Shown here piece after piece: positions 585-25,965 of a stretch of DNA of 32,000 nt. This stretch comes from Candidatus Woesearchaeota archaeon. Its GTDB lineage: Archaea > Nanobdellota > Nanobdellia > Woesearchaeales > GW2011-AR9. The stretch is taken from positions 599,847 to 631,846 of the forward strand of contig JACPIK010000002.1 in NCBI GenBank assembly GCA_016188115.1. Direction: 5' to 3'. Made by a program: the position numbers and the translations under genes. The first letter of the stretch is position 1; every line of letters starts with the position of its first letter. The notes under the pieces were generated by a model. That model was given only the letters and a program-made list of their open reading frames with translations. It ran no database searches and was not told the origin of the DNA.

Positions 585-1166
585 ATGACATTAAAAACAA
601 GCCATAAAATACTTATCGGCGTTGGCATCTTCATTGTACTCGTTGCATTTTGGGCAATGATTAGTTACAACGGACTCGTCAGTGCTGATGAAACTGTAAA
701 CGAAAAATGGGCAAACGTACAAACAGCCTATCAGCGACGTGCGGATCTTATCCCCAATTTAGTAGCAACAGTACAACAATATACAAATTATGAGGGTGAA
801 GTGCTTACCGAAATTACCCAAGCTCGGGCATCTATTGGTAAAGCAACAACTCCTCAAGATCTCGCAGCAGCAGGTCAACAAATGGATAGCGCGTTGTCAC
901 GTCTTTTAGTAGTTGCAGAAAACTATCCTGATCTTAAAGCCAATGAGAATTATCTTTCGCTTCAAGATGAATTAGCAGGAACGGAAAATCGTGTTAAAGT
1001 AGAACGTGACCTCTTTAACAAAGCTGTCAAAGAATTTAATATTAAAGTACGTCGCTTCCCAACTTCAATTATGGCAAGCTGGGGCGGATTTGAAACTAAA
1101 CAAAGTTTTGAAGCGCAAGCAGGGACGCAAAATGCGCCTGATGTAAATACCCTCTTTGAAGAATAA
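585..1166 (+). CDS. lemA: LemA family protein
   Basis: N-terminal TM helix followed by the typical LemA core (NGLV..DE.V.EKWANVQTAYQRRADLIPNLV..., ENYPDLKANENYLSLQDELAGTENRV). TAGGAGG SD upstream. Confidence 0.85.
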   Translation: MTLKTSHKILIGVGIFIVLVAFWAMISYNGLVSADETVNEKWANVQTAYQRRADLIPNLVATVQQYTNYEGEVLTEITQARASIGKATTPQDLAAAGQQMDSALSRLLVVAENYPDLKANENYLSLQDELAGTENRVKVERDLFNKAVKEFNIKVRRFPTSIMASWGGFETKQSFEAQAGTQNAPDVNTLFEE

Positions 1167-5661: not shown

Positions 5662-5747
5662 CATTACATCAGACTTATCTCATTCAGCCCCAAAACAAAT
5701 TTAAACCCCCCCTCCCTTTCACTTGGTAGATGTTAACAAAAGAGGAG

Positions 5748-5876
5748 ATGGACGAGCTATTTTTAGATATTGTAGATATCACTATTAAACCTATTTCAGA
5801 TAAAGCGATAACCAGCTGCTGCAAATCATACCTAACCACGAAAGGACGTTGCTACACCTGCCCACAAGACTACTAA
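5748..5876 (+). CDS. 42-aa Cys-containing small ORF (speculative)
   Basis: MDELFLDIVDITIKPISDKAITSCCKSYLTTKGRCYTCPQDY. GAGGAG lies directly upstream. Its stop is 2 nt before the next ATG. Confidence 0.25.
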   Translation: MDELFLDIVDITIKPISDKAITSCCKSYLTTKGRCYTCPQDY

Positions 5877-5878
5877 AA

Positions 5879-6076
5879 ATGAAACCACGCCTCTGTCCAA
5901 AATGTGGATCCCCCCAAGTTGAAGTATATGACGTTGGATTTCTACGTTGTAGACAATGTGGTTATGATGAGTTAGAACCAGAACCATTAGGTTATGATCC
6001 TCGTAAAAATCAGAAAGCAAAAACAGAATTTACACCATATAAAACTGGCGGCGCAAAAAGAACTATAAAAAAATAA
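5879..6076 (+). CDS. small zinc-ribbon protein with a basic C-terminal tail
   Basis: MKPRLCPKCGSP..x13..CRQCGY (CPxC/CxxC ribbon). The ATG at 5879 is preferred over the TTG at 5849. Confidence 0.5.
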   Translation: MKPRLCPKCGSPQVEVYDVGFLRCRQCGYDELEPEPLGYDPRKNQKAKTEFTPYKTGGAKRTIKK

Positions 6077-6082
6077 AAAGAT

Positions 6083-7533: not shown

Positions 7534-7617
7534 ATTGAATCGCAAAATAGAGAACTAAATCCAAACTCTTAAATATCACATCTTAACTTTCAATTTTTAA
7601 AAAGAGAGAAAAAAGAG

Positions 7618-12698: not shown

Positions 12699-13100
12699 TC
12701 ACATTGATTTCTTAATCGCAGCAACCAAATTATCCATATAATCTTTAATGGCATCAAAGCTTTCTACTTTCAGAATCTGGGAAGCCATGCCTTCGACCAT
12801 CAATGGCAATTTGGATTGACCTGTTGTCAAAATCAATACACGACGTTTCATACCACAAGCATAACCTATCTCAGCACCACAATTTGCCGTAAACCCATCA
12901 GCAACAGCAACAACTATTTTACAACCCTGCAACGCCTGCATATCCGCTGTTTGCACCTGCAAACGCATATTAAATTGATTAGCATCGCGTTGAGCTAAAT
13001 GACATGAAAGACCCTTCGCTTCCAGAGCCCGACTTAAACGAGGAGCAAATTGACGCGACCAATCAGTCGTATTTGCCACAGAGAGATATACATCAGCCAT
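12699..13100 (-). CDS. nucleoside 2-deoxyribosyltransferase-like protein
   Basis: VYLS...KIVVAVADGFTANCGAEIGYACGMKRRVLILT resembles the D-G-x-x-E-x-G-x-A core of PF05014-type proteins. The ATG at 13100 has TTTTTAAAT about 25 nt upstream. Confidence 0.5.
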   Translation of the reverse strand: MADVYLSVANTTDWSRQFAPRLSRALEAKGLSCHLAQRDANQFNMRLQVQTADMQALQGCKIVVAVADGFTANCGAEIGYACGMKRRVLILTTGQSKLPLMVEGMASQILKVESFDAIKDYMDNLVAAIKKSM

Positions 13101-13155
13101 AATAGAAAACAAGCTTACCCGATTTAAAAATCTTCACTGTCACGAATCAGTCTCG

Positions 13156-13170
13156 AAAAAAGCAAAAAAA
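13156..13170 (-). terminator. double oligo-T tract (T7 and T6 on the minus strand)
   Basis: The minus strand reads ATGTTTTTTTGCTTTTTTCG, an archaeal-style oligo-T termination signal upstream of the next promoter. Confidence 0.45.
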
Positions 13171-13257
13171 CATTCTCGCCCTCAGGTCTTGTAGATATTC
13201 CATGATGGAAGTACTCAGGAGTTCTTCATTGGGTCTCGAGGTTTGTAAATAATCAGT

Positions 13258-13262
13258 AAAAA
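13258..13262 (-). terminator. T5 tract immediately after tRNA-Arg
   Basis: On the minus strand the discriminator G is followed by TGTTTTT. Confidence 0.5.
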
Positions 13263-13264
13263 CA

Positions 13265-13433
13265 CGAGCCAGGGAGGACGTTCCCAATCTCTTGTTTCCA
13301 AAAGATTGTTTTGAACCCCCGAAGACAAGCTTACTTCTTCTCAAAAAGAGAATAGGAGGCTTGTGCCCTATGTACCCTTCAACTTTGACAATTTAGTTTG
13401 CCTAAAATGTTGTCCAGGCTAGGCGACTGGCTC
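13265..13433 (-). tRNA. tRNA-Arg (anticodon CCU) interrupted by three insertions or introns
   Basis: Minus strand: GAGCCAG-TC-GCCT-AGCCTGGACA-[~42 nt, 13369-13410, boundaries uncertain]-GGGC-A-CAAGC-CTCCTA-[21 nt, 13332-13352]-A-GCTTG-TCTTC-GGGGG-TTCAAA-[31 nt, 13279-13309]-T-CCTCC-CTGGCTC-G. All stems pair. U8, A14, G18G19, U33, A37, G53-C61 and the TTCAAAT loop are present. 75 nt of exon plus 94 nt of insertion equals 169 nt. Promoter and oligo-T terminator flank the gene. Confidence 0.7.
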
Positions 13434-13454
13434 GCAATAACACAAAACACTACG

Positions 13455-13466
13455 TATTTTTTAAAA
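13455..13466 (-). promoter_or_regulatory. TATA-like box for tRNA-Arg
   Basis: The minus strand reads TTTTAAAAAATA, centred about 27 nt upstream of the tRNA 5' end at 13433. Confidence 0.5.
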
Positions 13467-13484
13467 CCTTGTAAAAGAGAAAAT

Positions 13485-14960
13485 TTATCCCAAAAATCGT
13501 CTTATTCTTCCTGCTGCCAAAATCCCTTCATGTAATCCTGCATGATCATTCTTCTTAACGCAAGTCAAAATCCGATTTGACATCGCAGCATGTTCTTCAT
13601 TAACTTCATAATCAAAGAGAGTAAGCGCTTTTTTGACTGCTTTCTGAATCGGTTGAGGAAAATAAGACAAGTTATCTTTATTATAATATTGCAATGCGGT
13701 TTTGATATCATTATCTACATTATGATACGACTCACGCATCCGATCCAAATCTTTTCCTGATAATATTGAAACACCTAAAATGTCAGGTGGCAATCCCAGA
13801 GAATACAGCGAAGCGCAAAACGGAATTGCTCGAGGTAACGACGCACCATTTCCACGAGCATACCCAAACAACCCAATATGTAATTTACGTTTTCGCCGCT
13901 GTGGAATATGCACACTCATTTGATGAATCGTAGGAACAAGTAATTTGACTTGTTTTTGATACTCTGCTTCTAATTTTTCAATATACGGCAACGCCATTTT
14001 CTCATCTATTGGCATAGGAGCTGTGCGTGGAGCAGATTTGATCATATCAACAGCATTCGCTACATCACGCGCATCATAATCATATTTGAACGCAGACTGC
14101 ACAGTAAAGGTCTGCATACTTGGATACCCTGCAACCATCTTATGAGCATTAAGCGGTGTAAAATTTCCACGAAATGGCGCCGAGCCACAACCCAAAATCG
14201 GAAGAATTTCCACAGATGTTTTTCTTTCCAACTCTGCGAGTCGCTGCAAACCGATCTTAACCGAGAGAACTGTTGCAGTTGAGCCATAGGTAAGTGCAGG
14301 ATCACTACGTGCAAACCACACCCGTTGTTGCTCTTTGATTTTTTCGTGTTTCATGTATTTTTCAACATAACTATGCGCATTGAGAATTGCTTCTTTCGTT
14401 TCAAACAAAGGAGTCACTCGTATATCAGTAGGATGAAGAGGACCAACCCATTCTTTAAGAGTAATATCGTCATCATACAATTTACGGTCTTGACTTTTAA
14501 TCACAAATTGTTTGTAATATTCATGTATCCGAATTAGACTTTTCTCAGATGAACACATAGGCAATACTGCTTCAAAAACAGGTGCAATAGGTTTACCGTA
14601 AAACAAATTTCCTAAATCAAAATTACGTGGCAACGAGTGGAGAGATTCAAGTAAAATTTTCCCATCATTCTTCTCTACATCAGGATTAGGTACACGAAAC
14701 GTCAAAAATTTATCTTGACCCAGCACATTCTTGCGAAAATAATCTTCATAGCGAGAAAGTAACTTCTTAACTACAAACGCATCTACTTCTTTACCTTCTG
14801 CGTCCCAAAGTTGTTCATCAACACCTAAATTAGAAAATGAGTAATAGGCTTCTTTGACTTCATCCTCGCCTTCCATAACTGACTTTTCTGAAAAGAAAGG
14901 AATTGTCACATTATCAGGGTGTTGCGTCGACATCACCCGAGGAATTTTCATCACCGTCAT
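13485..14960 (-). CDS. ppcA: archaeal-type phosphoenolpyruvate carboxylase
   Basis: N-terminus MKIPRVMSTQHPDNV and a length of about 490 aa are characteristic of archaeal PepcA. The start could be 14963 (TTG), 14960 (ATG) or 14951 (ATG). Confidence 0.85.
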   Translation of the reverse strand: MTVMKIPRVMSTQHPDNVTIPFFSEKSVMEGEDEVKEAYYSFSNLGVDEQLWDAEGKEVDAFVVKKLLSRYEDYFRKNVLGQDKFLTFRVPNPDVEKNDGKILLESLHSLPRNFDLGNLFYGKPIAPVFEAVLPMCSSEKSLIRIHEYYKQFVIKSQDRKLYDDDITLKEWVGPLHPTDIRVTPLFETKEAILNAHSYVEKYMKHEKIKEQQRVWFARSDPALTYGSTATVLSVKIGLQRLAELERKTSVEILPILGCGSAPFRGNFTPLNAHKMVAGYPSMQTFTVQSAFKYDYDARDVANAVDMIKSAPRTAPMPIDEKMALPYIEKLEAEYQKQVKLLVPTIHQMSVHIPQRRKRKLHIGLFGYARGNGASLPRAIPFCASLYSLGLPPDILGVSILSGKDLDRMRESYHNVDNDIKTALQYYNKDNLSYFPQPIQKAVKKALTLFDYEVNEEHAAMSNRILTCVKKNDHAGLHEGILAAGRIRRFLG

Positions 14961-15007
14961 CAAAGTATATGAAAGAAAAATGGAATTAATAAAGGTATCT
15001 TTTGGTG

Positions 15008-16922: not shown

Positions 16923-18230
16923 ATGACATCCACACCCCATTTCCTTTCCATTCAACAAGCCATTACACAAGGTCAAGGCACCGTCTCTATTCGCGGTTGG
17001 GTGCATCGCGAACGCGGCTCCAACAAGCTTAAATTTATTACATTAAGAGACTCTTCCAACATCATTCAATGTGTTCTTGATAGAAAAGATTTCGAAACTC
17101 GTTGGGACGAAATTGATCATGTCCAAGTCGAAGCGTGCATGACACTTACAGGTGAACTCAAAAAAGACGAACGCGCCCCTACCGGTTTTGAACTTCATGT
17201 CAAAGACTACTTGTTAGTTGGCAAATCTGAAAATTTTCCTATCACTAAAGATCAATCCGTTGAATTTCTTGCTGACAATAGGCACTTATGGTTACGTAGT
17301 CGTAAAATGACAGCAATGCTCAAGATTCGTTCCACCATCTTTGGTGCTATTGATGAATACTTCAAAGGCCAAGGTTTCTATGAATACCATTCACCTATCT
17401 TTCAAGCCGTTCAATGTGAAGGTGGCTCCGAACTCTTCGAAGTTAAATACTTTGATAAAAAAGATGTTTTTCTCTCTCAAAGTTGGCAACTCTACGCTGA
17501 ACCAGCAATCTTTGCACTTGAGAAAATCTACACGATCGCACCAAGCTTTCGCGCAGAACCATCTAAAACATCACGTCATCTTACTGAATATTGGCACGCT
17601 GAAATGGAAATGGCGTGGTCAGAATTTGCTGACATCCAAAACCATGGTGAAGCACTATTAAAACACATCCTCAAACGTGTTCTTGAAAAACATAGACCGG
17701 ACCTTGAAATCATGGGTCGTGATGTAACGAAACTTGAACCAGCACTTACAAAACCATTTCCCCGCATCACCTATACAGATGCCCTCAAAATTCTCAAAGA
17801 AAAATTCAAGATGGACATTGAATGGGGAAAAGACTTACGTACCATTGAAGAAGAGAATCTTACCACTCTCTACGACACACCAATCATTTGTACTAACTAT
17901 CCTAAAAAAGTCAAAGCGTTCTACATGAAAGAAGATCCAAAAGATCCTCGTACCGTACAAGGATGCGATTTTCTAGCACCTGAAGGCCATGGTGAAATTA
18001 TTGGGGGATCACAACGTGAAGAAGACTTAGACAAAATTAAAGAACGGCTTATTGCACAAGGCGAAGACCCAACTCAATACGAATTTTATTTAGACACCCG
18101 TCGCTATGGATCCGTACCACACGGCGGCTTTGGCATGGGCGTTGAACGTATCGTACGCTGGATTTGCGGATTGGATAATATTAAAGACGCAATTCCATTC
18201 CCAAGGAACATGGAACGGTATAAACCGTAA
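16923..18230 (+). CDS. asnS: asparagine--tRNA ligase (class IIb; AspRS not fully excluded)
   Basis: OB-fold N-terminus (IRGWVHRERGSNKLKFITLRDSSNIIQCVL), FRAEPSKTSRHLTEYWHAEMEMAW (AsnRS-like EFW..E.E.A motif), and GGFGMGVERIVRWICGLDNIKDAIPFPR. TATA lies 30 nt upstream. Confidence 0.75.
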   Translation: MTSTPHFLSIQQAITQGQGTVSIRGWVHRERGSNKLKFITLRDSSNIIQCVLDRKDFETRWDEIDHVQVEACMTLTGELKKDERAPTGFELHVKDYLLVGKSENFPITKDQSVEFLADNRHLWLRSRKMTAMLKIRSTIFGAIDEYFKGQGFYEYHSPIFQAVQCEGGSELFEVKYFDKKDVFLSQSWQLYAEPAIFALEKIYTIAPSFRAEPSKTSRHLTEYWHAEMEMAWSEFADIQNHGEALLKHILKRVLEKHRPDLEIMGRDVTKLEPALTKPFPRITYTDALKILKEKFKMDIEWGKDLRTIEEENLTTLYDTPIICTNYPKKVKAFYMKEDPKDPRTVQGCDFLAPEGHGEIIGGSQREEDLDKIKERLIAQGEDPTQYEFYLDTRRYGSVPHGGFGMGVERIVRWICGLDNIKDAIPFPRNMERYKP

Positions 18231-18282
18231 GAGAGTTGTTGAAAACGTATCTTTTATATTCTTTAATTATTTTCCTTCCTTC

Positions 18283-18819
18283 ATGTCAAAAAAAGACACC
18301 CTTGTCTGGCTCGATCTAGAAATGACTGGTCTTGACCCCGACGTTGACACGATTCTTGAAGCCAGCGTAATCATCACTGACAATCAATTTAATCACGTCG
18401 CACAATTAGGTCCGATCATTATTCATCACACAAAAGAGCAGCTCTCAAAAATGAACGATTGGTGCAAGCAACACCACAAAGCATCGGGACTCACCCAAGA
18501 AGCGCTCGATGCAACACTCACACTCAAACAAGCAGAATCACAACTACTCAATTTCATCAAAAAATACACTCAACCACAAAGCTCCCCACTTTGCGGCAAT
18601 TCTATCTGGCAGGATCGTAGTTTTGTGCGAAAATACATGCCCAGAGTAAATGACTATCTACATTATCGCGTTATTGATGTCAGCACCATTAAAGAGCTCA
18701 TTCAACGTAAACACGGCGAGCAAGCTATCCCAAAAAAGAAAGAAACACATCGATCTTTAGATGATATTAAAGAATCAATAGAAGAGATGAAGTATTACAC
18801 CATACATTATTTAAAATAA
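18283..18819 (+). CDS. orn: oligoribonuclease (DEDDh 3'-5' exonuclease)
   Basis: LVWLDLEMTGLDPDVDTILE, SPLCGNSIWQDRSFVRKYMPRVNDYLHYRVIDVSTIKEL are collinear with bacterial Orn and eukaryotic REXO2. The ATG at 18283 has TTTTATATT 31 nt upstream. The longer ORF from 18106 overlaps asnS. Confidence 0.85.
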   Translation: MSKKDTLVWLDLEMTGLDPDVDTILEASVIITDNQFNHVAQLGPIIIHHTKEQLSKMNDWCKQHHKASGLTQEALDATLTLKQAESQLLNFIKKYTQPQSSPLCGNSIWQDRSFVRKYMPRVNDYLHYRVIDVSTIKELIQRKHGEQAIPKKKETHRSLDDIKESIEEMKYYTIHYLK

Positions 18820-18921: not shown

Positions 18922-20823
18922 TTGAACTCTGAGGATTTACAAATCCATACACTCCAGGCAATTTCTCCCATAGATGGACGGCACCATATTTTTACAAAAC
19001 CCCTTTCACAATTTTTCTCTGAATTCGCACTCCATAGATTCCGAGTGTTTGTTGAAGTAGAATATCTCATCGCGTTAAGTCAAACTCCTGCGTTTATTCA
19101 ACTACGTCAATTTACACCCCAAGAAAAAGAATTCTTACGTTCAATTTTTAGCTCTTTTAGTCTAAATGATGCAATACATATTCAAAACATAGACCATTTT
19201 GGTACGTCAACAATTTCAGCAACACATCATGATGTCAAAGCAGTAGAATATTTCATTAAAGAAAAAATACAAACCTCAACATTAAAAGATATTGAAGAAT
19301 TTGTCCATTTTGGATTAACCTCAGAAGATGTAAATAACATTGCCCATAATCTTATGATCAGAGAAGGGCTTAGAACTTTTTTCATTCCTGAATTAGTAAA
19401 TATTCTCGATTCACTTTCCATACTTTCCCTTCAAGAAAAAGAGAGCATAATGCTCGCAAAAACCCATGGTCAGCCCGCTGTACCGACCACATTTGGCAAA
19501 GAGGTTGCCAATTTTCTTGAACGACTCCGCAAAGATCTGACACGGTTAACAGAATATAAACTACCTGCAAAATTAAATGGTGCTGTAGGAACATTTGCTG
19601 CTATGCAATATAGCGCCGCACCAGTTGATTGGATCGCATTCTCTGAAAATTTTATTACTTCATTAGGTTTTAGTCCAAATCTTCTCACCACACAAATCGA
19701 ACCCCATGACGGCATAGTAGAATTATGCAGCATTATTCTGAGTATTAATAATATTATTTGTGATCTGTGCATCGATTTGTGGATGTATATCTCCCAAGGG
19801 CTTCTTGTTCAAAAAAATATAACCAGCGAAATAGGTTCTTCCACAATGCCGCAAAAAATTAACCCCTGGAGATTAGAAGTAGCCGAAGGCAGTACTCGAG
19901 AAGCAAATGCAAAATTAATAGGGTTTATGAACAAAATTCAAATGTCAAGATTGCAACGCGATCTCTCTGATCACGAGGCATTGCGGGGAATCGGTGAAGC
20001 CATCGCCCATTCTTTTGTTGCGCTAACGCATTTAGGACAAGAGATTGGAAGAATTACACCTAACCGCACATTAATGAAAGACGAAGTGTATTCCAACGCT
20101 GTTATTCTTAGTGAAGCAATTCAAAGTGTATTACGAGTAGAAGGATACCCTAAACCCTATGAAATGGTAAAAGATCTTTCCAAGGGAAAAATGTATACAT
20201 TAGAAGAATTGCAACAACACATTACACAACTCCCCATAACCACAGAAACAAAACGACGTCTTACTAACCTGAGTTTTGAATCCTATCTAGGTCTTTGTAC
20301 AAGATTAGTGGATATTGCGCTAGAACGGTGGAACAATTTTCGTGAAAAATATCACTCACCAAATGTGCCAATTACAACTATCATCCTAAATTTCCCTCAC
20401 TGTTTTAAAGCAACCACTAACTCGCAAAATAACGTACCCGATTCAATAAATAATGATTTACCAGAGCTTAAAATTATAGAAATGTTAGAAAAAAGAGGAC
20501 TGGAAATAAGAGGAATAGACGTCCCCTACTGGTTGCAAAAAAGATTTTCAAAAGTGTATACTTCACAAGAAGTAAATCAAATTATAATAGACAAAAATCA
20601 AACAGCCATCATTGTAGGAAAAAACACAGATCAAGATCAGAATGTATTTAATCAAAGCAACCAAAATACAGCCATAAAATATGTTGCATTGCAAGAACCA
20701 CTGGCACAAACCCCTTATCATATCAATCAATTATCTGAATTAATACCTCTTGTAGAATATTTCTCACAAGTTAACATCCCGTTCACAGCCGTTACCAACA
20801 TATCATCAACAGAGAAGAACTAA
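18922..20823 (+). CDS. purB: adenylosuccinate lyase with a C-terminal extension of about 165 aa
   Basis: LQAISPIDGRH, FRVFVEVEYL, GLTSEDVNN, GSSTMPQKINPWRLE signature. The core ends near residue 470 and residues 470-633 lie beyond a normal PurB. TTG start at 18922. Confidence 0.85.
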   Translation: MNSEDLQIHTLQAISPIDGRHHIFTKPLSQFFSEFALHRFRVFVEVEYLIALSQTPAFIQLRQFTPQEKEFLRSIFSSFSLNDAIHIQNIDHFGTSTISATHHDVKAVEYFIKEKIQTSTLKDIEEFVHFGLTSEDVNNIAHNLMIREGLRTFFIPELVNILDSLSILSLQEKESIMLAKTHGQPAVPTTFGKEVANFLERLRKDLTRLTEYKLPAKLNGAVGTFAAMQYSAAPVDWIAFSENFITSLGFSPNLLTTQIEPHDGIVELCSIILSINNIICDLCIDLWMYISQGLLVQKNITSEIGSSTMPQKINPWRLEVAEGSTREANAKLIGFMNKIQMSRLQRDLSDHEALRGIGEAIAHSFVALTHLGQEIGRITPNRTLMKDEVYSNAVILSEAIQSVLRVEGYPKPYEMVKDLSKGKMYTLEELQQHITQLPITTETKRRLTNLSFESYLGLCTRLVDIALERWNNFREKYHSPNVPITTIILNFPHCFKATTNSQNNVPDSINNDLPELKIIEMLEKRGLEIRGIDVPYWLQKRFSKVYTSQEVNQIIIDKNQTAIIVGKNTDQDQNVFNQSNQNTAIKYVALQEPLAQTPYHINQLSELIPLVEYFSQVNIPFTAVTNISSTEKN

Positions 20824-20824
20824 G

Positions 20825-23197
<2,373 letters not shown>

Positions 23198-25524: not shown

Positions 25525-25556
25525 GATTTCTCATATCTCTTCGCCCCACCACAATA

Positions 25557-25566
25557 TTTATAAATA
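25557..25566 (+). promoter_or_regulatory. TATA box for rps17e
   Basis: TTTATAAATA starts 30 nt upstream of the ATG at 25587. Confidence 0.5.
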
Positions 25567-25586
25567 ACCTACTCTCCAAACCAATT

Positions 25587-25775
25587 ATGGGACGTATTAA
25601 AACTACACGTATCAAACGAAAAACCAAAGAACTCCTCAAAATGCACGGAGAAAAATTCTCTGCAGATTTTACTCAAAATAAGCTTCTTACCAACAAATTT
25701 ACCACGGTACAAGGCAAAAAATTGCGAAATATCATTGCAGGATACATGACTCGCCTTAAAAAACGCGAAGCATAG
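25587..25775 (+). CDS. rps17e: 30S ribosomal protein S17e
   Basis: MGRIKTTRIKRKTKELL...KLRNIIAGYMTRL is the typical archaeal S17e pattern. The antisense ORF at 25569-25814 is rejected. Confidence 0.85.
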   Translation: MGRIKTTRIKRKTKELLKMHGEKFSADFTQNKLLTNKFTTVQGKKLRNIIAGYMTRLKKREA

Positions 25776-25933
25776 ATTTTCTATTTCTTTCTTTAACTGT
25801 TTACTAATTAACATAACACACTAAAAGTAACACGAAGAACTCTGGAATGAACAGCCATCCCTCCATAATTTTGTAAAAAAAAGAATCATCATTACCGCTT
25901 GTTTTCTAAACGTACTCTCTTACAAGAGCAGAG

Positions 25934-25943
25934 TTTATAAATA
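25934..25943 (+). promoter_or_regulatory. TATA box for the aIF2-gamma gene
   Basis: TTTATAAATA starts 32 nt upstream of the ATG at 25966. Confidence 0.5.
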
Positions 25944-25965
25944 AACTCCTGTTCACACCACCCAG

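Follow-up and report, generated by a model that had tools for sequence, protein, structure and literature searches.

Archaeal tRNA genes interrupted by several introns have been described foremost in the Thermoproteales (Pyrobaculum, Thermofilum, Caldivirga). In the accounts of Sugahara et al. 2007/2008 drawn on here (PMC4033280, PMC8450103), a single gene may hold as many as three BHB-type introns, in loops and at both canonical and non-canonical sites, with relaxed BHB motifs, and ordinary tRNA finders miss these genes; similar introns found at different sites are suggestive of intron transposition. The locus described here, a predicted tRNA-Arg(CCU) gene with three introns, resembles the Thermoproteales genes in each of these respects. 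It differs in its host, which is not a hyperthermophilic crenarchaeote but a DPANN archaeon, AT-rich and mesophile-like, in its endonuclease, predicted from the literature to be of the alpha4 type with an L3 loop (PMC5829648) rather than the (alpha-beta)2 enzyme with the crenarchaeal loop, and in that the paralogous introns lie within the same gene, in its D-loop and T-loop.

Closer to the host are ARMAN/Micrarchaeota and other DPANN archaea, which share with the present case non-canonical and multiple introns and tRNA sets that standard predictors leave incomplete (PMC3239211, PMC5829648); the genomes studied by Fujishima et al. 2011 (PMC3239211) and Hirata et al. 2018 (PMC5829648) are other than the one considered here. 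In DPANN lineages endowed with an L3-loop alpha4 EndA, disrupted tRNA genes are more frequent and the tRNA sets predicted are incomplete (PMC5829648). A preliminary description of the locus had stated that three interruptions in one tRNA gene are known mainly from Thermoproteales and a few ARMAN-type genomes; three-intron tRNAs of DPANN archaea are in any case not unprecedented in kind (PMC5829648). The gene is thus a further case of the already known multi-intron tRNAs, with unusual evolutionary detail.

Two other systems bear on a small RNA found next to the tRNA gene. A box C/D RNA encoded in the intron of euryarchaeal pre-tRNA-Trp was reported by Clouet d'Orval et al. 2001 and Singh et al. 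2004, as these are presented in PMC7994747 and PMC11408192, and dicistronic units of a tRNA and a C/D box sRNA were reported in archaea by Tripp et al. 2017, as presented in PMC7994747. A limited literature search returned no prior description of the gene family, the intron series or the small-RNA cassette reported below.

A tRNA-Arg(CCU) gene with three predicted introns

The window (the whole 32,000-nt stretch of DNA that was analysed) contains a 372-nt spacer, 13113-13484, without a credible ORF. It is indeed the longest such stretch, as had been proposed, the nominally larger gaps at 5662-6082 and 25525-25965 holding a plausible zinc-ribbon protein gene and a plausible ribosomal protein S17e gene, respectively. 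Its characterization as apparently empty did not hold up: a second candidate RNA gene, overlooked in the preliminary description, also sits there. Read on the minus strand from 13433 to 13265, the letters match the earlier reading exactly and the arithmetic closes at 169 nt, made up, in that earlier register, of exons of 23, 16, 22 and 14 nt (75 nt) and inserts of 42, 21 and 31 nt (94 nt). The features of the gene, with the first intron placed as argued below, are the following.

13458-13465, minus strand: TATA-like box, TTTAAAAA, at -32 to -25 from tRNA position 1
13265-13433, minus strand: complete predicted tRNA-Arg(CCU) gene, 169 nt, three introns, mature form 75 nt
13414-13433, minus strand: exon 1, acceptor 5' strand, U8, C9, D-stem 5' strand and D-loop through G19
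13372-13413, minus strand: intron 1, D-loop, 42 nt, most likely at position 19/20 (13410-13369 in the earlier register)
13353-13371, minus strand: exon 2, AUA of the D-loop, D-stem 3' strand, A26, anticodon-stem 5' strand and CUCCUA
13332-13352, minus strand: intron 2, 21 nt, canonical position 37/38, relaxed BHB
13310-13331, minus strand: exon 3, A38, anticodon-stem 3' strand, variable loop UCUUC, T-stem 5' strand and T-loop UUCAAA
13279-13309, minus strand: intron 3, T-loop, 31 nt, position 59/60
13265-13278, minus strand: exon 4, U60, T-stem 3' strand, acceptor 3' strand and discriminator G73
13258-13262, minus strand: run of five T, starting two bases past the discriminator

Spliced in silico, the 75-mer is called by ARAGORN as tRNA-Arg(cct) with a normal cloverleaf. 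Its acceptor, D, anticodon and T stems comprise 7, 4, 5 and 5 bp with correct spacers, and the conserved nucleotides listed in the preliminary description (U8, A14, G18G19, U33, A37, G53-C61 and the T-loop UUCAAAU) are all there, such that stems as well as loop and tertiary nucleotides are those of a canonical class I elongator tRNA. A20, an arginine identity element in tRNAs, is also present. The mature form ends in the discriminator G (13265), CCA not being encoded. With introns at 19/20 (or 21/22), 37/38 and 59/60, at least one of them non-canonical, the locus has the make-up of a multiple-intron archaeal tRNA gene. The earlier assignment to tRNA-Arg(CCU) agrees with the ARAGORN call, with a shuffle control and with seven orthologues, and we put at about 0.9 the probability that this Woesearchaeota-type DPANN archaeon has, at 13433-13265 on the minus strand, a functional tRNA-Arg(CCU) gene with three BHB introns of the endonuclease type.

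Intron positions and splicing motifs

The orthologous genes form a series with one intron (L037 and L007), two introns (L005, L035 and L023) or three (L010, the close relative L001 and the window), and all eight mature forms are 75 nt long. The archaeal BHB motif consists of two 3-nt bulges separated by a 4-bp helix, is cut after the second nucleotide of each bulge and exists in hBHBh' or relaxed forms. This geometry is found in the window, introns 1 and 2 being relaxed rather than strict. Motif scores were compared with those of random position pairs; unconstrained scoring gives many chance high scorers in an AT-rich pre-tRNA and was not used alone to place splice sites. Owing to this high background, BHB evidence taken alone is weak for introns 1 and 2.

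For the D-loop intron, 19/20 (13413-13372) is the most likely position, fitting the splicing motif and all orthologues better; this boundary is 3 nt 5' of the 21/22 position given in the preliminary description, which ran exon 1 on to 13411. The three interruptions reported there, in the D-loop, at 37/38 and at 59/60, are thus retained with this one boundary moved. At 19/20 the central helix GCCU:GGGU is fully paired (4/4, including two G-U), with an outer helix of 4 bp and an offset inner helix, for a score of 12 (P ~5e-3) vs 10 in the earlier register. Splicing at 19/20 yields the D-loop AGCCUGGAUA and the 21/22 cut yields AGCCUGGACA; L007 and L037, which are devoid of a D-loop intron, read GGAUAGGGC. 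In this register the central helix has 4/4 pairs in the window, L001, L005, L023 and L035, and 3/4 in L010. Exon 1 is identical in L001. The CUCCUA that ends exon 2 spans C32 to A37 and includes the anticodon CCU, and the 19-mer of this exon, ATAGGGCACAAGCCTCCTA, is identical in the window, L001, L007, L010, L023, L035 and L037.

Intron 2 has a central helix CUCC:GAAG with 3/4 pairs (one C-A mismatch), a 5-bp hairpin UUCUC/GAGAA and a score of 11 (P ~1e-2), one bulge being ambiguous between 2 and 3 nt. It measures 14 nt in L001, and its start (UUC) and end (AGAAGUA) are common to the 45-nt intron of L037. In intron 3 the T stem serves as the outer helix, followed by a central helix UUCA:GGAA (3/4 pairs), bulges AA|A and CG|U and a 6-bp inner helix CAAUCU:AGAUUG in which L001 shows a compensatory change from U-A to C-G; the score is 14 (background P ~4e-4), and the central helix reaches 4/4 pairs in L001 and L010. 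L005, L007, L023, L035 and L037 lack the T-loop intron and read GGTTCAAATCC contiguously. That orthologues without the T-loop or the D-loop intron read exactly as the splice product confirms the proposed exon junctions.

The departure of introns 1 and 2 from the strict 3-4-3 geometry might suggest that the tRNA is real and that at least one insert is removed by a route other than BHB cleavage, or retained as an expansion of an unusual mature tRNA. We consider this very unlikely: each of the three inserts occupies a loop site compatible with the 4-nt/3-nt/4-nt geometry, and both the central helix and the motif as a whole are perfect in orthologues (D-loop intron in L005, L023 and L035; T-loop intron in L001 and L010). 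Retained inserts would further have to accommodate lengths and sequences that vary freely, which is unexpected of structural expansions, and orthologues without inserts that are ordinary 75-nt tRNAs. Neither EndA nor RtcB was recovered by Pfam scans of 20 of the 38 window ORFs of at least 100 aa.

Conservation of the gene and of its flanking signals

The close relative L001, whose PEPcase is 86% identical to that of the window, has tRNA exons identical at 75/75 positions and introns of 33, 14 and 53 nt vs 42, 21 and 31 nt in the window, two of the three length differences not being multiples of three. Among the seven distinct spliced sequences, 147/147 cells are paired, a count favoured by the choice of splice registers that restore the cloverleaf in multi-intron orthologues, and at six pairs both bases have changed in a compensatory manner; 0 of 500 shuffles attain the observed level and slid controls yield 0-1 such pairs. 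The exon-1 20-mer occurs among GTDB species genomes only in the nzgw60 MAG, the same organism as L001/L002, and the exon-1 21-mer had no match in JGI metagenomes; of 31 metagenome matches to the exon-2 19-mer, most came from another, GC-rich archaeal lineage and were set aside. Tight synteny with the PEPcase gene is gone at 63-66% identity; the tRNA gene nonetheless lies within ~1-3 kb of it in L005, L007 and L010, and none was found in L006, L008, L009 and L011.

The TATA-like box announced upstream of the gene was found again at 13465-13458, preceded by a purine-rich BRE-like stretch. A TT(T/A)(A/T)(A/T)AAA box starts 30-33 nt upstream of position 1 in 8/8 orthologous genes, a near-constant distance. 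The run of five T said to follow the discriminator is likewise present, at 13262-13258, and is probably a terminator, possibly a leaky one. T-runs also follow the tRNA gene in L001, L005, L007, L010 and L035; L023 has none.

These data bear on a second alternative, namely that the locus is a tRNA pseudogene in decay, its loops disrupted by insertions, and is no longer spliced or used, AGG being read by another tRNA. AGG is very rare and in fact the rarest arginine codon in the window (4/264 arginine codons in 14 ORFs), two of the three BHB motifs are relaxed and the locus goes unrecognized by ARAGORN and Rfam. The gene may even be dispensable, since tRNA-Arg(UCU) could in principle read AGG, itself very rare. 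Decay is, however, difficult to reconcile with exons identical at 75/75 positions next to a PEPcase that differs at 14% of residues, while the inserts between them carry indels and substitutions. Across the seven orthologues stem changes are only compensatory, the promoter box is conserved, the insert positions are kept in several species, and the BHB-forming intron ends are conserved, with an inner helix that has undergone a compensatory change. We regard the pseudogene as highly improbable.

Visibility to tRNA finders

The expectation that standard tools overlook this gene proved correct for the two that were run. ARAGORN found no tRNA in the unspliced locus or anywhere in the whole 32-kb window, the Rfam tRNA model returned nothing at its gathering threshold in the unspliced window, and no tRNA emerged from Rfam at E<=10 over 13100-13500. 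Other Rfam hits at E<=10 in that interval (PA5194 thermometer, SNORD62 and flavivirus xrRNA) fall far under their thresholds and were dismissed as noise. The same tRNA model finds the one-intron orthologues full length (L007, 46.3 bits; L037, 40.9 bits; threshold 29), whose mature sequences are 85% identical to that of the window tRNA, and detects none of the two- or three-intron orthologues, which ARAGORN misses as well. A custom scanner requiring a cloverleaf and conserved tRNA nucleotides and allowing zero or one insert of 10-65 nt per loop matched the tRNA-Arg(CCU) locus alone on both strands of the window, and had no match in 250 dinucleotide shuffles of it. A chance match in non-coding spacer DNA or in the UTR of an adjacent gene, which could be invoked given that the three insert positions and lengths had been freely chosen and that 7-bp acceptor-like pairs are common (~470 per shuffled window), is already effectively refuted by the absence of any full match in the 250 shuffled windows, by the covariation and by Rfam matches to orthologues. 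Orthologous genes are present in seven or more further genomes or metagenomes, and ARAGORN and/or Rfam independently recognize two of them.

A box C/D-like small RNA downstream of the tRNA gene

The second candidate RNA gene of the spacer comprises the following features.

13168-13244, minus strand: box C/D-like small-RNA cassette in a BHB frame, assigned from its BHB score, conservation and homology
13223-13229, minus strand: box C-like AUGAAGA, one mismatch to RUGAUGA
13198-13210, minus strand: central hairpin UUCC-AUCAU-GGAA, occupying the expected D'/C' site
13182-13185, minus strand: box D, CUGA, kept in 6/7 copies (CGGA in L023)
13164-13170, minus strand: run of seven T, read from the sequence

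The BHB of the cassette has an outer helix AAAC:GUUU, a central helix CUCG:CGAG (4/4 pairs), bulges AGA and AAU and an inner helix CCC:GGG; it scores 15 (background P ~9e-5) and predicts an excised RNA of 62 nt (13234-13173, minus strand). The cassette is almost identical in L001, and its flanks align to the anticodon-arm exons of relatives. In four of these (L005, L007, L010 and L035), the canonical tRNA intron is 63-65 nt long and holds a box C/box D small RNA whose terminal stem is the inner helix of the splicing motif. A covariance model built from the intronic copies only matches 13172-13234 (minus strand) with 36.4 bits (E ~1e-7). By sequence, then, the putative downstream RNA is homologous to the small RNA in the long canonical intron of the relatives' tRNA-Arg(CCU) genes.

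The defining elements of a box C/D RNA, namely box C, box D and the potential of the terminal stem to support a K-turn, are all present, the boxes being kept in 6-7 homologues. The position of box C reads AUGACGA or AUGAUGA in relatives, and boxes C and D can form a K-turn made of the CCC/GGG stem, the AAU bulge and G-A, A-G, A-U and G-C pairs. The central hairpin shows a compensatory change from U-A to C-G in L001, and an equivalent hairpin, UCC(C/U)...GGGA, occurs in all intronic copies. No conserved CUGA/UGAUGA pair was found at the expected spacing for internal D'/C' boxes among the copies compared; a pairing of the first CUGA, in spacer 1, with UGAUCGA was rejected, the C'-like motif occurring only in L007 and L010 and the spacers measuring only 4-6 nt. 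Folding energy is no better than that of shuffles on either strand (z = 0.58, 0.33), so that the case for the small RNA rests on conservation and homology. In box C/D RNAs a guide of 10-12 nt pairs with its target, which is methylated at the nucleotide five positions upstream of box D or D'. The two spacers, of 12-13 nt, are ACUCCUGAGUAC and UAUCUACAAGAC. Their matches to the tRNA's own T-stem region are G-U-rich and extend over 8-9 bp only, and self-targeting of the tRNA by the small RNA was rejected on this ground; nor is there convincing complementarity to tRNA positions 34 or 39.

The relatives with an intronic C/D RNA thus recall pre-tRNA-Trp, with the difference that the host is tRNA-Arg(CCU) and that a hairpin replaces boxes C' and D'. 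The window departs from the pre-tRNA-Trp type, where a small RNA in the 37/38 intron guides methylation of C34/U39 of its host: here the 37/38 intron is just 21 nt long, and the small RNA is found downstream of the tRNA instead of within it. As in the dicistronic tRNA-sRNA units, it directly follows the tRNA gene, only 3 nt past it in L023. Unlike in those units, it is enclosed by a perfect BHB, which would stem from duplication of an anticodon arm, and a run of five T separates it from the tRNA in the window. The 3-nt interval of L023, without any T-run, implies co-transcription. An alternative role for the T5 run, as part of a small-RNA promoter (TTTTTAC), is unlikely, its distance to the cassette being 28 nt in the window vs 22 nt in L001 and the spacer being absent from L023. 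The run of seven T at 13164-13170 probably ends transcription, either of the small RNA by itself or of tRNA and sRNA as one unit.

Discussion

A processing pathway may be proposed for this locus in which the BRE/TATA promoter (about -32 to -25) would direct transcription from a start a few nucleotides upstream of position 1, and the precursor would fold into a strict or relaxed BHB at each pair of exon-intron junctions. EndA would then cut out introns of 42 nt (probably at 19/20), 21 nt (37/38) and 31 nt (59/60), and an RtcB-type ligase would join the four exons into the 75-nt tRNA, to which CCA would be added later. The downstream 62-nt RNA would probably be freed from a read-through tRNA-sRNA transcript by the same endonuclease.

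The T-loop intron of the window aligns with the D-loop intron of L001 over its full length with 26 matches, a score reached by none of 1000 shuffles; as judged from this alignment, the D-loop and T-loop introns are paralogues, and the T-loop intron may be a duplicated or transposed copy of the D-loop intron, or the D-loop intron one of the T-loop intron. The small RNA, in turn, would descend from one once housed in the canonical intron of the tRNA and would now reside in a duplicated pseudo-anticodon-arm BHB cassette. Its export may have proceeded by duplication of the anticodon arm together with its intron into a stand-alone pseudo-exon cassette whose BHB was perfected (CUCC/UA to CUCG/AGA), such that the endonuclease would excise, and the ligase probably circularize, a small RNA from a non-tRNA transcript. 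Whether one lineage has indeed witnessed two kinds of BHB-intron mobility, copying between the D-loop (19/20) and the T-loop (59/60) and export of the small RNA into a cassette, is a proposal to which we give even odds.

For its non-canonical-intron models, tRNAscan-SE 2.0 used training sets from Crenarchaeota/Euryarchaeota and Thaumarchaeota; DPANN archaea were not among them (PMC8450103). In 208 complete Nanobdellota genomes the median number of tRNAs is 35 and full sets for the 20 amino acids were found in only 96, a shortfall for which split tRNAs have been suggested as the cause (bioRxiv 10.64898/2026.05.13.725050). Hidden multi-intron genes offer a simpler, directly testable explanation for such incomplete sets; were the two intron mobilities true, genes with DPANN-specific introns would explain part of them. 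A DPANN intron model could be trained on the eight aligned orthologues. That a single orthologous gene carries one, two or three introns depending on the genome amounts to a compact natural experiment on the gain of endonuclease-type introns, of which the paralogous D-loop/T-loop intron pair is part. The small RNA, housed in an intron in some species and in a free-standing BHB cassette in others, belongs to it as well and bears on how intronic RNAs turn into genes of their own.

The interrupted tRNA-Arg(CCU) gene

The minus strand between window positions 13433 and 13265 very probably carries a functional tRNA-Arg(CCU) gene with three introns, a reading to which we assign a probability of about 0.9 on sequence evidence. 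The locus occupies a 372-nt gap between the PEP carboxylase (PEPcase) gene and a nucleoside 2-deoxyribosyltransferase-like gene (12699-13112), in a window of about 38% GC with archaeal gene content (eIF2-gamma, archaeal-type PEPcase, an Lrp/AsnC regulator and a class II aminoacyl-tRNA synthetase of the Asp/Lys/Asn family). Two nominally larger gaps contain plausible small genes, for a zinc-ribbon protein and ribosomal protein S17e, and the preliminary description was therefore right to call this the largest empty spacer.

Features of the locus
13485-14963, minus strand: PEPcase gene, product 100% identical to a protein labelled "Candidatus Woesearchaeota archaeon"
13465-13458, minus strand: TATA-like box TTTAAAAA, at -32 to -25 from tRNA position 1
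13433-13265, minus strand: tRNA-Arg(CCU) gene
13262-13258, minus strand: T5 run, beginning two bases past the discriminator
13244-13168, minus strand: small-RNA cassette downstream of the tRNA, nearly invariant between the window and its nearest relative, locus L001
13170-13164, minus strand: T7 run, probable end of the tRNA-small RNA unit

The minus-strand reading first proposed proved exact, with exons of 23, 16, 22 and 14 nt and inserts of 42, 21 and 31 nt (inserts 1, 2 and 3, in the D-loop, at the canonical position 37/38 and in the T-loop). As had been predicted of standard callers, ARAGORN reported no tRNA in the whole window or in the unspliced locus, and Rfam none in the window at the gathering threshold or in 13100-13500 at E<=10; the in-silico spliced 75-mer was called by ARAGORN as tRNA-Arg(cct) with a regular cloverleaf. 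A custom cloverleaf scanner, tolerating at most one insert (10-65 nt) per loop in the three loops and requiring a 7-bp acceptor, U8, A14, D-loop GG, U33, R37, G53-C61 and UUCRA, matched this locus alone on both window strands and gave no full match on 250 dinucleotide shuffles of the window, despite about 474 acceptor-like pairs per shuffle. These results and the orthologue series support the proposed three-intron identity.

The TATA-like box and the T5 run noted earlier are both present. In 8/8 genes an equivalent A/T box follows a purine-rich stretch and starts 30-33 nt before position 1, a placement that implies a predicted leader of only a few nucleotides, and a T-run lies at the same place in most orthologues, L023 being without one. 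AGG is by far the rarest Arg codon (4/264 Arg codons in the 14 window ORFs with Pfam support), so that demand for tRNA-Arg(CCU) is low and the three-intron tRNA serves a very rare codon; despite this low demand, constraint on its exons is evident.

Elsewhere in the window, a 790-aa ORF (20825-23197, plus strand) encodes adenylosuccinate synthetase fused to a C-terminal HAD-family hydrolase domain, and the adjoining adenylosuccinate lyase ORF (18922-20823; 633 aa) is also unusually long. The ORFs of the class II aminoacyl-tRNA synthetase (16923-18230) and an RNase T-like exonuclease (18106-18819), both on the plus strand, share about 125 nt at the coordinates given; their L001 homologues do not overlap, so the true start of the window exonuclease is probably further downstream.

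Orthologues and the intron series

L001 (equivalent to L002-L004, MAG nzgw60; PEPcase 86% identical) carries the same tRNA gene at L001:7536-7710, immediately downstream of PEPcase. Its four exons match those of the window at 75/75 positions, and its inserts of 33, 14 and 53 nt carry many substitutions, with the junction-proximal ends kept and one pair of the insert 3 inner helix changed from U-A to C-G. Relatives further removed, with PEPcases 63-64% identical, and contigs from JGI metagenomes yielded six more orthologues; the mature length is 75 nt in all eight genes.

Introns of the eight tRNA-Arg(CCU) genes (lengths in nt)
Gene; number of introns; D-loop (19/20); canonical (37/38); T-loop (59/60)
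L037; 1; none; 45; none
L007; 1; none; 63; none
L005; 2; 47; 65; none
L035; 2; 36; 63; none
L023; 2; 42; 47; none
L010; 3; 18; 64; 21
L001; 3; 33; 14; 53
Window; 3; 42; 21; 31

Genes without a T-loop insert have GGGGGTTCAAATCCTCC uninterrupted and those without a D-loop insert read CTGGATAGGGC; the spliced junctions therefore exist as uninterrupted DNA. Among the seven distinct spliced sequences stem pairing holds in 147/147 cells, a count favoured by the analyst's choice of splice registers in the multi-intron genes (L007 and L037 are independent of this choice). Double compensatory changes occur in six pairs, of which three lie in the acceptor, two in the anticodon and one in the T stem; 0/500 shuffles attained the observed pairing and covariation, and slid 3' partners gave 0-1 such pairs. 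ARAGORN called L007, and Rfam RF00005 matched L007 (46.3 bits) and L037 (40.9 bits; threshold 29) over their full length at exactly the coordinates assigned to them; none of the two- and three-intron orthologues was detected by either.

Directly 3' of the L037 tRNA (~1000-1150, plus strand) are two direct repeats of ~65 nt, each with the tRNA 3' end (AATCCCCTCGGGTCCGCATTTAATTC...), which look like attachment-site duplications from an element integrated into the tRNA gene. The exon-2 19-mer also occurs in a distinct, GC-rich archaeal lineage with acceptor GGGCGGG (L012, L014, L016, L017, L019-L022, L024-L028, L030-L034, L036, L038, L040, L042), whose tRNA-Arg(CCU) has a non-canonical insert after position 9 (UA|AGGAAAG...CCGAC|GCCUAG) and, on some contigs, a further insert within the 3' anticodon stem (AAGC|CGAACAUGAAGAGAG|CUUG). 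Related contigs L013, L015, L018, L029, L039 and L041 are without both inserts.

Splice motifs and the origin of the loop introns

In the bulge-helix-bulge (BHB) motif cut by the archaeal splicing endonuclease EndA, the central helix is made by the 4 nt on the 5' side of each 3-nt bulge, and the cut comes after the second bulge nucleotide. Insert 3 presents a near-perfect hBHBh', the strict form with flanking helices (T stem as outer helix, central UUCA:GGAA, bulges AA|A and CG|U, inner helix of 6 bp), with 3/4 central pairs in the window and 4/4 in L001 and L010. Insert 2 is relaxed, with a C-A mismatch in the central helix CUCC:GAAG, as in L001 and L037.

The existence of insert 1 was borne out, but its boundary is better placed 3 nt further 5' (19/20, intron 13413-13372) than at the 21/22 originally proposed. 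The latter gives 3/4 central pairs and an outer helix of 3 bp; 19/20 gives GCCU:GGGU, 4/4 with two G-U, and an outer helix of 4 bp. The 19/20 central helix pairs 4/4 in L001, L005, L023 and L035 and 3/4 in L010, and in L005 this motif is the best-scoring BHB of the entire precursor. The predicted window D-loop is AGCCUGGAUA under 19/20, rather than AGCCUGGACA, and the mature D-loop of all relatives is AGNCUGGAUA. On the pairing and the D-loop sequence together we prefer 19/20; the two candidate spliced products differ solely at position 20a.

BHB scores of junction pairs, with background from 400,000 random position pairs within the window
Junction pair; BHB score; background P
Insert 3; 14; ~4e-4
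Insert 1 at 19/20; 12; ~5e-3
Insert 1 at 21/22; 10; ~3e-2
Insert 2; 11; ~1e-2

When BHB scoring is run unconstrained on a precursor, many high scores arise by chance, and the BHB evidence for inserts 1 and 2 is supportive, not decisive.

The window T-loop intron (13279-13309) aligns end to end with the L001 D-loop intron (7556-7588) with 26 matches, a score attained in 0/1000 shuffles. CAAYNUUUU(A)GG(G/C)AAA is common to the D-loop and T-loop introns within L001 (7556-7588, 7644-7696) and likewise to those of the window (13372-13413, 13279-13309, minus strand). We infer that the D-loop and T-loop introns are paralogues; the shared sequence suggests that an intron was copied between two loops of one tRNA gene, the kind of event inferred in Thermoproteales (PMC4033280).

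A box C/D-like small RNA beside the gene

In the cassette, AUGAAGA resembles a box C and CUGA is a box D, and the two could form a K-turn beside a CCC/GGG stem. The cassette also has two 12-nt spacers and a central hairpin in which one pair differs in a compensatory way between the window and L001; the small RNA folds no better than shuffles, and no Rfam family matched it. In L005, L007, L010 and L035 the long canonical intron is built to the same plan, and the first spacer, CUCCUGAGUA, is nearly identical in the L007 and L010 copies. A covariance model trained solely on these four intronic copies matched window 13172-13234 (minus strand; 36.4 bits, E ~1e-7), L001 (34.1 bits) and a free-standing copy 3' of the L023 tRNA (54.3 bits), and gave 0 matches on 170 kb of unrelated loci. 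We regard the window small RNA as homologous to that of the same tRNA's canonical intron in relatives. The alignment reaches into the flanks, where tRNA ACAAGCCUCCUA corresponds to window ACAAACCUCGAG and L023 UCAAGCCUCAAG, and GAGUAAGCUUG to window GAGAAUGUUUU and L023 GAGUAUGCUUG, placing the free-standing small RNA in what we take to be a degenerate copy of the anticodon arm together with its intron.

The cassette frame is a perfect hBHBh' in 3/3 free-standing copies (window: AAAC:GUUU, CUCG:CGAG, bulges AGA and AAU, CCC:GGG, score 15, P ~9e-5; L023: outer helix of 5 bp). That it is more canonical than the intron-borne versions argues for its maintenance for endonuclease processing. The L023 cassette starts 3 nt past the tRNA with no T-run between, so the two must, on this layout, be co-transcribed; for the window cassette, the simplest route would be transcription continuing through the T5 run.

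Comparison of the spacers with the tRNA yielded no convincing target, only G-U-rich matches to its T-stem region. Fibrillarin and Nop5 genes adjoin PEPcase in a relative (L008:3002-4592, minus strand; PEPcase 64% identical), which indicates that the clade possesses box C/D RNP machinery. On both grounds we use the label "box C/D-like".

Relation to known systems

tRNA genes interrupted by as many as three BHB introns are already established in archaea, chiefly among Thermoproteales (PMC4033280, PMC8450103), in agreement with the preliminary description, and DPANN lineages are reported to have more disrupted tRNA genes and predicted tRNA sets that are incomplete (PMC5829648, PMC3239211); the window gene therefore belongs to a multi-intron type already known from archaea, including Thermoproteales. 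The known tRNA-intron box C/D RNA is that of tRNA-Trp (PMC7994747, PMC11408192), whereas in relatives of the window lineage the box C/D-like RNA lies in the tRNA-Arg intron. In the searchable literature we found no description of a tRNA-Arg intron that carries a box C/D-like RNA, of the relocation of such an RNA into a stand-alone BHB cassette or of D-loop/T-loop intron paralogy. We regard the locus as a clear and well-supported case of a hidden gene, with an informative evolutionary intron series, and it is relevant to the problem of missing tRNAs in genomes of Nanobdellota (bioRxiv 10.64898/2026.05.13.725050).
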